From a bacterium (lineage in GTDB: Bacteria > Zixibacteria > MSB-5A5 > GN15 > FEB-12): a stretch of 64,000 bases of DNA. Location: contig JBDRNJ010000057.1 of assembly GCA_043811375.1 (NCBI GenBank), positions 12,452 through 76,451 of the forward strand, given 5' to 3'. Position 1 is the first letter of the stretch. Every line of letters begins with the position of its first letter. The notes under the pieces are model-generated. The model made no database searches, was not told the origin of the DNA, and saw nothing but the letters and a program-made list of their open reading frames with translations. A program made the position numbers and the translations under genes. Positions 1 through 3,650 of this stretch are shown here, one piece after another.

Positions 1-654
1 CAGGGTGTTGGGGTTGGTCATCATGATGCCGGCGACGTCTTCATCCATGACCTCGGCCACCGCCGATGGTGAAATAACGCCCTGCTCGTTGGAAGCGATC
101 TGGATAGTGCTGAAACCTACCGACGCTACCGATGCCGGGTTGGTGCCATGGGCCGAATCGGGGATAATGATATTACTCCGCGGTTGACCCCGGTCAATGT
201 GACAGGCCCTCATGATCAGCAAACCGGCAAACTCGCCGTGGGCGCCGGCTACCGGTTGCAGTGAGATACCGGCAAAGCCTGAAATTTCCGACAGGAACTC
301 CTGTAGTTCCCACATCAATTGCAGCAACCCCGGAGCCGAGCTGCATGGCGCCAGCGGGTGGTGACTGCGAAAGCCCGCCAGTGCCGCCGCGGCCTCGTTG
401 GCCCGGGGGTTGTACTTCATGGTGCACGACCCTAGCGGATAGAAACCCTTATCTATGTGATGGTTCTTGACCGACAACCCGATGAAGTGACGCATCGCTT
501 CACCTTCCGTCACTTCCGGTAGCGCCGCCGGCTGCGAGCGCCGGTGTACCGCCGGAATAGCCGCCAGTATCTCCGATTCAGTTTTCATCGTTGACGGCAG
601 TGTGTACCCGGTGCGACCACTTACCGACTTGTCGTATATCAATATCTTCTGCAT
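1..654 (-). CDS. gcvPB: Glycine dehydrogenase (decarboxylating) subunit 2, 5' part; runs off the window start
   Basis: Missing from the ORF track. Manual translation from ATG at 654 gives MQKILIYDKS...LPEVTEGEAMRHF...FYPLGSCTMKYNP...MMTNPNTL, diagnostic GcvPB motifs. The frame is open to position 1. Confidence 0.93.
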   Translation of the reverse strand, partial: MQKILIYDKSVSGRTGYTLPSTMKTESEILAAIPAVHRRSQPAALPEVTEGEAMRHFIGLSVKNHHIDKGFYPLGSCTMKYNPRANEAAAALAGFRSHHPLAPCSSAPGLLQLMWELQEFLSEISGFAGISLQPVAGAHGEFAGLLIMRACHIDRGQPRSNIIIPDSAHGTNPASVASVGFSTIQIASNEQGVISPSAVAEVMDEDVAGIMMTNPNTL

Positions 655-688: not shown

Positions 689-1552
689 CTACTTCTCCGC
701 CTCGATTTCTCCCTTTAGTCCGGCTATCTGTTTCTGAGCGTACTCGACGTCTTCGGATTCAGGGTAGTGCTTTACGAACTGCTCGAAGGTCTCGATGGCC
801 GCAGCGGTATCTCCCATCTGGCGGTAGACTATAGCTTTCCAGACTTCGGCGTTTTCAGCAAACATGGAGCCCTCAAAATCAGTCATGACGGTAGTGAAAG
901 TCTTAAGGGCGGCATCGTACTCTTTGTTGCGACGATGCACATCGGCTATGGCCAGAAGGCATTCACCGGACAGTGAATCATGTGGGTCACCGGCAGAAAT
1001 AACTTTGTTATACCAGGCCGTCGCCTTCTCGGTGCCGCCGCGGTAGTGATACTTCTCTGCTATCCGGTATGCCAGAGAGCGATCATTGTTGGTCTCAGCC
1101 TGAGCCAGCAAGTCGACCAGAGTACCGATCCCGTTCTTGTAATTGGTCAGTTCAATCAGCAGTGAATCGGGCGGCATATAACCGACCACCCGATCTACCT
1201 CGGCGCCCTGCGGATCAACCAGAACCAGTGTGGGGTAGCCCATGATATGGTAGGCGGCGGCCAGGGAGGTGTCCTGTTTGCCGTCTATTTTGGCCATAAC
1301 CATTTCATTGGTGAAGAAGTCAATGACTTTCTGATCAGTCAACACGACCGTGTTGATCGTATCACACCACCTTCACGTCGGCGAATAAAAGTAGACTACG
1401 GCGTGCCGGTCATCGGCGGCCGCCTTGCTGATGGCCAGATTGGCGTCAGTTACGTATGGTGCCCTGGCGATGTCGTCCGTTACCCCGGCAGTAATTGTGA
1501 CGGTAGCCGTCAGTACTACCACCATCATGACAATAAGATGAACTTTGCTCAT
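689..1552 (-). CDS. Probable selenoprotein: signal peptide + thioredoxin-like domain (UxxC) + TPR repeats, 287 aa if TGA is read as Sec
   Basis: ATG at 1552 encodes a hydrophobic N-terminus (MSKVHLIVMMVVVLTATVTITAG). It reads VVYFYSPT-TGA(1375-1373)-RWC in frame into the tracked ORF 689..1345, which has a cis-Pro loop (GYPTLVLVD) and TPR/YfiO-like repeats. Confidence 0.8.
1332..1364 (-). promoter_or_regulatory. Candidate bacterial SECIS element
   Basis: Minus-strand hairpin TCAACAC-GGTC-GTGTTGA (1356-1339) with a G-first apical loop starting 23 nt after the UGA. Extra TGAT/ATCA pairing lies below it. Confidence 0.7.
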
Positions 1553-1576: not shown

Positions 1577-1969
1577 TTATAGTCCGTTACTTTCTTCCGG
1601 TTGAATCAACTCGTCACCCAGGACGGCTTCGAGAATCAATGCCGCCGCTTCGCGGTACTCACGGGGCACCATGATGATATTCCCGCCACCCGAGAGAGCG
1701 GCCAGGCCCAAATGATTATCGATTCCGCGGCCATAGGCGGAGAAACTCGAGGAGAGTATTACCGACGGGATATTGTTTGAGTCCAGCGAACCGCGTGCGA
1801 TGTCGGACTTCATGTCACCGGCGACCTGACCCACTATTGCCCATGAATCGTCCGGTGTCATCGCGGCAGTACCGGTTTCGGGAAGCCGGTCGACGAGTTC
1901 TTCGTCGCAGTCGGGGCAAACCCTGATGCCCGTTTCATATTCATATCGACAGGCGGGACAGAAGGACAC
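1577..1969 (-). CDS. Zn-ribbon + DUF2007-like (putative signal-transducing) protein
   Basis: N-terminal CPAC...CPDC, then ARGSLDSNNIPSVI...IMVPREYREAAALIL. Paralog of the next gene. Confidence 0.7.
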   Translation of the reverse strand: MSFCPACRYEYETGIRVCPDCDEELVDRLPETGTAAMTPDDSWAIVGQVAGDMKSDIARGSLDSNNIPSVILSSSFSAYGRGIDNHLGLAALSGGGNIIMVPREYREAAALILEAVLGDELIQPEESNGL

Positions 1970-2317
1970 TCAGTTTTCCTTTCTTCGCCACTTATCACCC
2001 ACGGTCATATCCAGCACTTCGCAGGCTTCTTCGTGGAGGGCAGCCGGCACCAGTATTTCAAAAGGTGCTTCATCACCCCGGTAAAATGGCCGCAGCGGTA
2101 AACCGATATTGCCGAAAAAGCCGTTTTTGCATCGAAGCATCGCCGGGATGTTTGAGGAGACCAAGGCTTCGCGGGCCATGTCGGCGAATACTTTGTTTTC
2201 CAGTGTACCCAGCACGATCCACTCGTCTGTCGCAGCGTCGGGCAGTTTGTAGCCGCAGATGCAGCATTCACCGGAATCCCCCGGCAACTCATGTTTGCAT
2301 TTGGGACAGAGTGCCAC
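1970..2317 (-). CDS. Zn-ribbon + DUF2007-like protein
   Basis: CPKC...CCICG, then AREALVSSNIPAML...ILVPAALHEEACEVL. Its stop abuts the next start. Confidence 0.7.
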   Translation of the reverse strand: MALCPKCKHELPGDSGECCICGYKLPDAATDEWIVLGTLENKVFADMAREALVSSNIPAMLRCKNGFFGNIGLPLRPFYRGDEAPFEILVPAALHEEACEVLDMTVGDKWRRKEN

Positions 2318-3650
2318 CGGCTATTAACTCCCTGAGACCGTCGACCAAATCGCCGATCTCCTGTTCGGTTCGTTTCTCGGTGAGAGCCACAATCAGACAA
2401 TCGTCCATGCCCGGATACCAGCGGCCGGCAGCGATGCCCGGCAGAACCCGGCGTTGAACCATGGTGCGGATCAGTTCCCGCGCCGATACCGGTATCCGCA
2501 GCGCAAACTCGCGGACAAACGGTTGGTCGAAATAAAGCCGGCAGCCCTCAAGTTCTTCAAGTGCTTTAGCTGCCTGCTGCGCCTTTTCGGCCGACAGCAG
2601 GGCTACCTGTCTGAGACCACTCCTGCCCAGTAGCGTCAGGTATACTGACGCTGCGGTTGCACACAGGGCCTGATTGGTGCAGATATTGGAGGTTGCTTTT
2701 TCACGCCGTATATGTTGTTCCCGCGTTTGCAACACCAGGACAAACCCGGTTTTGCCGTCGACATCGGTGGTCCGTCCGGCGATGCGTCCGGGCAGGCTGC
2801 GAACCAGTTCCCGGCGAGCGGCAAAGAAGCCCAGCAGCGGGCCGCCGAAGGAGAGCGGCAGACCCAGCGGTTGCCCTTCGCCGACCACGATGTCGGCTCC
2901 GTACTCGGCGGGAGTTTTCAGCAGAGCCCCAGCGATCGGGTCAATGGACACGATCAATTTGCCGCCGACGTTGTGAATGATCTCGGACGCCGCCGCCATA
3001 TCTTCCAGGCAGCCGAAGAAGTTCGGTTGACTCATCAACAGACAGGCCGTCCGGTCATCCACGGCCGCCTGCAGGCGATCCAAATCACACAGTCCCTCAT
3101 CCATGGGAATTGTAATCAATGAAGCATCGCGACCGGAAAGATAGGTTGTAATCACCTCACGATAAAGGGGGCTGACTGTCTCGGCGACGATCACGTTGGG
3201 ACGGCGCGTGCTCCTGGTTGCGATTACAGCCGCCTCGGCGGCGGCGGTGGCTCCGTCGTACATGGAAGCGTTGGCCACGTCCATGCCGGTAAGACGGCAG
3301 ATGTGTGTTTGAAACTCGTAGATAACCTGCAACGTTCCCTGCGACACCTCCGGTTGATAAGGCGTGTAGGCTGTCATAAACTCCGGGCGGCTGATAACCG
3401 ATCCGACAGCTGCCGGGATATAGTGATCGTAGACGCCGCCCCCGGCAAAACAGGCCAGGCCGCTCAGGTTGTTCTGCGACAGCTTTTCCGCTTCGCGCAA
3501 CACTTCCATCTCGGAGTGTGCCGGTATATCCAGCGGGCGTTGCAGCCGCAACTCGGTGGGTATGGAAGACAGCAGTTGTTCGATATCCGCCGCACCGATC
3601 TTTTGCAGCATGGTCAGGCGGTCGTTGTCGGTGTGGGGAACGTATGGCAT
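2289..3650 (-). CDS. gcvPA: Glycine dehydrogenase (decarboxylating) subunit 1
   Basis: TAYTPYQPEVSQG, NASMYDGATA and QTREQHIRREKATSNICTNQAL motifs. Confidence 0.97.
   Translation of the reverse strand: MPYVPHTDNDRLTMLQKIGAADIEQLLSSIPTELRLQRPLDIPAHSEMEVLREAEKLSQNNLSGLACFAGGGVYDHYIPAAVGSVISRPEFMTAYTPYQPEVSQGTLQVIYEFQTHICRLTGMDVANASMYDGATAAAEAAVIATRSTRRPNVIVAETVSPLYREVITTYLSGRDASLITIPMDEGLCDLDRLQAAVDDRTACLLMSQPNFFGCLEDMAAASEIIHNVGGKLIVSIDPIAGALLKTPAEYGADIVVGEGQPLGLPLSFGGPLLGFFAARRELVRSLPGRIAGRTTDVDGKTGFVLVLQTREQHIRREKATSNICTNQALCATAASVYLTLLGRSGLRQVALLSAEKAQQAAKALEELEGCRLYFDQPFVREFALRIPVSARELIRTMVQRRVLPGIAAGRWYPGMDDCLIVALTEKRTEQEIGDLVDGLRELIAGGTLSQMQT

Follow-up and report, generated by a model that had tools for sequence, protein, structure and literature searches.

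A predicted selenocysteine-containing thioredoxin-TPR protein, probably exported, encoded between glycine-cleavage genes in Zixibacteria

Comparison with homologous genes indicates that the single in-frame TGA of a gene in the window (the whole 64,000-nucleotide stretch of Zixibacteria DNA analysed here) almost certainly specifies selenocysteine, placed in the active site of a thioredoxin domain. The preferred reading, to which we give a probability of roughly 0.7, is that of a 287-aa thioredoxin-TPR selenoprotein serving as an extracytoplasmic disulfide reductase or isomerase. The open reading frame as listed has 218 aa and starts at GTG 1345, the first base of the 3' arm of a hairpin discussed below; an earlier note, made from the letters of the DNA, had proposed that an upstream ATG at 1552 supplies the missing N-terminus. 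Translation of the window bears this out, with the minus strand from 1552 to 689 giving 287 aa and only one internal TGA, in the context VVYFYSPT-U-RWC (codon 60, 1375-1373), and with the terminal TAG ending at 689. The gene and its presumed parts are as follows.

689..1552, minus strand: full gene; signal-like peptide, UxxC thioredoxin domain and TPR domain, 287 aa
1559..1563, minus strand: Shine-Dalgarno-like AGGGA, 6 nt 5' of ATG 1552; read from the sequence, its function presumed
1487..1552, minus strand: predicted signal peptide, residues about 1-22, from hydropathy; cleavage site predicted; no lipobox in this copy
1373..1375, minus strand: codon 60, an in-frame TGA predicted to place selenocysteine at the attacking position of UxxC, from the alignment of homologues
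1364..1366, minus strand: Cys63, predicted resolving cysteine, invariant in the alignment of database homologues
1339..1356, minus strand: SECIS-type hairpin inside the coding sequence; 7-bp stem, loop GGTC (1349-1346)
1133..1465, minus strand: thioredoxin domain, residues about 30-140, from Pfam, the structure model and fold matches to DsbD-gamma, DsbH, 2lst and 2kuc
716..1120, minus strand: TPR-like helical domain, residues about 145-279, from Pfam TPR; closest folds BamD and YbgF/CpoB

Pfam Thioredoxin_2 is matched at residues 45-132 (46 bits vs. a cut-off of 27), and the Pfam TPR matches span residues 161 to 276. In the AlphaFold model (pLDDT 91.9), a loose, low-confidence helix (residues 4-17) precedes the thioredoxin domain (about 30-140), after which eight helices occupy 145-279; within the thioredoxin domain, a strand at 50-56 is followed by a helix at 61-70 that bears the UxxC at its start. 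Pro107, which we take to be the cis-Pro position of the thioredoxin fold, is invariant in the alignment of database homologues. The fold, the conserved proline and the UxxC that opens the active-site helix are thus those of the UxxC thioredoxin-fold proteins (PF13098/PF00085). A second thioredoxin-like protein of the same genome (L174; G000:C39:26778-27332, plus strand) has a signal-like N-terminus and the motif WCGWC, in the Cys form, and by its length no TPR part.

The state of codon 60 was read in 64 homologous genes, these being the matches that cover it in 61 related genomes, every one of which gave a match: it is TGA in 38, TGC or TGT in 26, and nothing else. Family f1 contributes 25 TGA genes (one of them a distant paralogue) and 15 Cys genes, f2 four and one, f3 nine and one, and f4 none and nine, while Cys60 is invariant in 41 full-length database homologues. 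The in-frame UGA is thus aligned to a conserved cysteine. The earlier note had placed it exactly at the attacking cysteine of CxxC, and had named a different residue at this position in homologues as evidence against its proposal; no such residue was found in any of the 64. At E 1e-25 a profile search finds a homologue in 275 of 285 genomes of the phylum, nearly always a single one, the Sec/Cys counts resting on the 64 extracted genes and not on all 275 genomes. The named relatives belong mostly to Candidatus Zixiibacteriota. A single-protein search of genome contigs gave no matches, but an alignment-based search did; as one of the two patterns used in the latter demands Cys, that search was left out of the Sec/Cys counts, and its named loci were not pooled, since they may duplicate genomes already counted. 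Nearly all of the distant homologues are in the Cys state. One match, in G100, contains a TAG; its codon 60 is Cys.

The selenocysteine machinery, for which the earlier note had suggested a search, is all present in the genome, which is 95% complete: selA (E 5.8e-123) and selB are adjacent on contig C68, selD, itself carrying one in-frame TGA, is on C27, and a tRNA-Sec (selC) with a TCA anticodon is on C9. A selA match was obtained in 58 of the 61 genomes searched, this one included. Two of the three genomes with no selA match hold the TGA form of the gene, G026 (56% complete) and G054 (93%); searches of these two for selB and tRNA-Sec also gave no match, and both have a selD with one TGA. Gaps in the assemblies are the likely cause, though the TGA form in G054, at 93% completeness, counts against the preferred reading.

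It is scarcely conceivable that the TGA stands for Cys, Trp or Gly, by way of another code or general read-through, or that it is a sequencing error. Reading as Cys would yield an ordinary CxxC protein such as those of the 26 homologues, but a tRNA-Sec with the TCA anticodon is present, and long ORFs in this genome end in TGA more often than in any other stop (446 of 1064), so the genetic code has not been reassigned. Since the TGA is common to 38 homologous genes it is not a sequencing error, a doubt that the earlier note had itself raised, and the independent contigs of two public runs that cover codon 60 (at a depth under 5) have no change giving Cys or Trp, one public-run contig spanning the whole gene having been left out of this reading.

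Among the 396 candidates of a genome-wide TGA scan, mostly noise, only the thioredoxin-TPR gene, selD and a HesB-like gene were recognised. The selD TGA (L007:1531-1580, plus strand; G000:C27:74163) lies in the context G-U-ASK, with a 7-bp hairpin of loop GTT 20 nt downstream whose sequence differs from that of the thioredoxin-TPR hairpin. The HesB/IscA-like gene (L172:155-490, plus strand; G000:C72 near 221768) has an in-frame TGA (GFG-U-GGP) and a 6-bp hairpin, and its best NCBIfam match is IscA_HesB_Se, below the cut-off; it is likely a second selenoprotein, of a known family. A search for GrdA gave no match anywhere, controls included, and so does not indicate its absence.

The hairpin downstream of the TGA, TCAACAC/GGTC/GTGTTGA, has seven Watson-Crick pairs and a 4-nt loop with G first. 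This is the hairpin that the earlier note had described as lying 23 nt downstream, a figure that can now be made more precise: it is the loop that begins 23 nt after the TGA, the distance to the stem being 16 nt. The bSECIS criteria are a loop of 3-9 nt, a stem of 4-16 bp, a G in the first two loop positions, a spacing of 16-37 nt and an MFE of at most -7.5 (PMC13188914); with its loop GGTC, 7 bp, spacing of 23 and -11.8 kcal/mol for 1365-1330, the hairpin falls within all of them. Across this genome, a hairpin as good as this, with at least seven Watson-Crick pairs, G within the first two positions of the loop and a distance of 16-37 nt, is found after 4 of the 445 TGA codons that end long ORFs and after 36 of the 6861 codons for Cys. 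The folding energy is ordinary when set against shuffles (z -0.70 and -1.64), so that the evidence lies in conservation rather than in stability. All 24 Sec orthologues of f1 keep the hairpin, with ACG in 24/24, GTC in 24/24 and GTG in 23/24, vs. three or four codons at each of the control four-fold sites of these genes (Pro107, Thr108, Gly141, Gly143 and Thr144). Pairing in the f1 Sec hairpins reaches 99.4% of 168 cells, and slid controls pair at 27-52%; two compensatory pairs are seen, one between G-C (13) and C-G (10) and another from C-G to U-A; and 0 of 500 shuffles match the observed pairing or covariation score, the covariation figures being inflated by the relatedness of the sequences. 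The loop GGTC is kept in only 3 of the 15 f1 Cys genes, in contrast to the frozen synonymous sites of the TGA genes. Judged by these patterns, the hairpin is under selection in the Sec genes, and by the established bacterial mechanism there is very little room for doubt that SelB would bind it and deliver Sec-tRNA to the UGA.

The same patterns bear on the proposition that the TGA simply terminates translation, with the gene split or broken or with the 218-aa product of the internal GTG as the real protein. An in-frame GTG does exist at 1345 and is used by gene callers, and the lack of selA, selB and tRNA-Sec matches in G054 would agree with a stop there. Against this, in all 38 interrupted genes, which span three families, the interruption is a TGA and falls on one and the same catalytic codon; the 59 codons upstream of it preserve a signal peptide and the first strand; only in the TGA genes are the hairpin's synonymous sites frozen; and a split would, in the model, sever the thioredoxin fold right at the active site. 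A true stop is thus extremely unlikely, and the preferred reading as a selenoprotein is retained in what follows.

The hairpins occupy the same site but are of at least four family-specific types. The nine Sec genes of f3 share TCGATAC/CGTGAC/GTATCGA, with all seven codons identical in 9/9; ATGGAC/8 nt/GTTCAT, whose loop does not begin with G, is found in three of the four f2 genes and in the one f19 gene examined; and five Sec genes of f14 have a stem of 9 bp or longer with the loop GGA, while of three f14 Cys genes one keeps the hairpin and two show mismatches (the f14 and f19 data come from 10 further genomes picked by hand, which are not a sample). In a tree built with the active site and hairpin masked, f1 to f4 each form one group with full support. 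At least 14 changes between Sec and Cys are counted among 39 f1 rows, and 19 in 85 rows, counts in which gain and loss are not distinguishable and which are inflated by weak branches. Reversion from Sec to Cys is suggested because remnant hairpins persist in Cys genes, an argument also used in PMC1794560. The differing hairpins, together with the presence of Cys in nearly all distant homologues, suggest that Sec may have originated several times in this family, although a single origin with turnover of the hairpin may also account for them. According to a 2026 review, Sec-to-Cys changes are rare in bacteria and concern mainly FdhA and SelD (PMC13188914); the thioredoxin-TPR family looks like a further case.

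Several loci hold two copies or lie apart from the rest. In G015 (L042) and G017 (L137), Sec and Cys copies, sisters in a quick tree, stand in tandem in opposite orders, the Cys copies being possibly selenium-independent backups. The second copy in G036 (L160) is a distant paralogue with TGA at codon 60; its N-terminus is lipoprotein-like, it has a hairpin of its own, and no gcv genes adjoin it. Outside the phylum, a record of 1921 bases titled Planctomycetales (L110) has a TGA and a Cys homologue in tandem, with differing downstream sequence, and an independent gain of Sec is possible there.

The gene lies between the two genes for the P protein of the glycine-cleavage system, with the following neighbours in the window.

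1577..2317, minus strand: a pair of small zinc-ribbon genes directly 5' of the gene; one matches DUF2007 weakly
2289..3650, minus strand: gcvPA, upstream; NCBIfam PRK00451 above the cut-off
1..654, minus strand: start of gcvPB, 35 nt past the stop of the gene and running off the window; best NCBIfam match PRK04366, scored on the 218-aa part within the window (full ORF on contig C57)

The zinc-ribbon genes (1577-1969 and 1970-2317, minus strand) are paralogous, with a CxxC-CxxC pattern and weak DUF2007 and zinc-ribbon matches; such genes accompany the orthologues in zero to two copies, and at least one stands beside most of them. The order kept is gcvH, gcvPA, zero to two zinc-ribbon genes, the thioredoxin-TPR gene and gcvPB, the cluster also including accB, accC, pilT and pyr genes. 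Promoter and terminator scans gave results at chance level. Either gcvPA or gcvPB or both adjoin 63 of the 64 homologues, on the same strand and with short gaps, the exception being the paralogue. This linkage establishes orthology, and the fixed place between two cytoplasmic gcvP genes is a point against the preferred reading, being unexplained by a periplasmic role. It could mean that the protein serves the glycine-cleavage system, for example through redox exchange with GcvH by way of its lipoyl arm, in the cytoplasm or at the inner membrane face. The predicted signal peptides and lipoboxes point outward, however; the genome encodes its own lipoamide dehydrogenase elsewhere; most of the distant homologues outside the phylum (in Ignavibacteria, Armatimonadota and Planctomycetota records) have no gcv neighbours; and accB, accC, pilT and the pyr genes in the cluster fit a conserved gene order. 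We therefore consider such a role very improbable; the linkage is unlikely to reflect shared function, and the gcv position most likely represents conserved gene order, not shared chemistry.

Export is indicated by our own hydropathy and lipobox heuristics, applied with no cytoplasmic control set. The N-terminal hydropathy of the window copy is 2.79 over 12 residues and is at least 2.0 in 61 of the 64 homologues, 24 of which have a lipobox-like motif. The two types of signal swap within one family, which favours export. On these sequence features the N-terminal peptide very likely exports the protein, which would be free in the periplasm in this organism and held by a lipid anchor in the lipobox-bearing relatives. 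Of the earlier note's exported selenoprotein, the export is supported by these heuristics and the insertion of selenocysteine stays a prediction. In the envelope, Sec60 as the selenolate would attack a disulfide of an envelope protein, Cys63 would resolve the intermediate, DsbD would re-reduce the Se-S bond and the TPR domain would bind clients, a scheme whose steps, taken jointly, have slightly better than even odds. A full-length DsbD of 644 aa is encoded on contig C4.

The main rival is a redox-coupled holdase, a periplasmic counterpart of CnoX/YbbN that would shield the cysteines of its clients while the TPR repeats hold unfolded envelope proteins. The top Foldseek matches are indeed YbbN of E. 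coli and Salmonella, with the same domain order; the TPR part is nearest to the envelope proteins BamD and CpoB; and YbbN proteins can show reductase activity, holdase activity or both (PMC10998233). But the YbbN matches have a TM-score of 0.31, an rmsd of 21-22 and 13-16% identity, so that only the separate domains and their order correspond, and there is no YbbN structure among the 60 profile matches listed. The holdase is accordingly the less likely role, at perhaps one chance in five, and the preferred reading remains that of a reductase or isomerase. No stronger is a wider speculation in which the envelope selenoprotein is the phylum-wide periplasmic CnoX counterpart with a BamD/CpoB-like client domain, Sec has been gained several times and lost many, and the UGA, lying just 5' of gcvPB, could through polarity tie glycine cleavage to the supply of selenium. 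If it were true, each family would have built its own SECIS from the same few codons, and the losses would have left the remnant hairpins and the tandem Sec/Cys backups.

Databases carry the selenium form of the protein cut short. As the earlier note had expected, automatic annotation truncates the gene: the database entry for the window's protein is a fragment of 222 aa (77% coverage), and the short database forms, where named, are nearly all called "tetratricopeptide repeat protein". Neither the Sec form nor either of two Cys forms scores above the cut-off of any NCBIfam model. A literature search found no description of a thioredoxin-TPR selenoprotein family, though the supplements of large selenoprotein surveys could list it. 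In the accessible text of PMC13188914, the table of 119 families lists no TPR fusion, although the review counts different architectures as separate subfamilies, and the terms "TPR" and "tetratricopeptide" have 0 occurrences; PMC8318568, in its accessible text, mentions Zixibacteria merely as a bin. Exported bacterial selenoproteins as such are already known, among them a TonB-dependent receptor and ABC substrate-binding proteins (PMC13188914, table). The finding thus widens the bacterial selenoproteome by a thioredoxin-TPR architecture and sets right a systematic fault of annotation, since of the best 120 database homologues 79 are short and lack the CxxC, while 41 are full length and have it. 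Its wider value lies in the evolution of the gene, which at a single locus takes the Sec or the Cys form across a phylum, with family-specific hairpins. The natural Sec/Cys pairs, even in tandem, are suited to testing the benefit of Sec in the periplasm, and also the mutual constraint of a coding SECIS and its protein.

Compared with known systems, the protein represents a new architecture among the known UxxC thioredoxin-fold selenoproteins, with which it shares the fold (both Pfam models being above their cut-offs), the UxxC and the UGA with a downstream hairpin, and from which it differs in the fused C-terminal TPR domain; the comparison with the catalogue's PF13098 UxxC / "Thiol:disulfide interchange protein" family covers the description of that family. 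Identity with CnoX, DsbH or DsbD was considered and rejected by the structure, NCBIfam and signal-peptide tests. With CnoX/YbbN it has in common a similar length and the linkage of a thioredoxin domain to a following TPR domain, but the chain cannot be superposed as a whole, whole-chain homology is lacking, and it has Sec and a signal-like peptide (by the heuristic), whereas CnoX is cytoplasmic, without a signal peptide, and works with GroEL. The thioredoxin part (residues 30-140) is closest to DsbD-gamma, DsbH and the Thioredoxin_2/7-type proteins 2lst and 2kuc (Z about 15, rmsd 1.9-2.9), but those structures have no TPR domain, and the NCBIfam cut-offs for DsbH and DsbD are not reached (33 of 190 and 37 of 330 bits). 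The helical part (residues 150-280) is closest to BamD and the TPR domains of YbgF/CpoB (Z 16-17), but it scores 47 of 81 and 48 of 90 bits against their NCBIfam cut-offs, and helical repeats match each other so readily that this likeness does not imply function.
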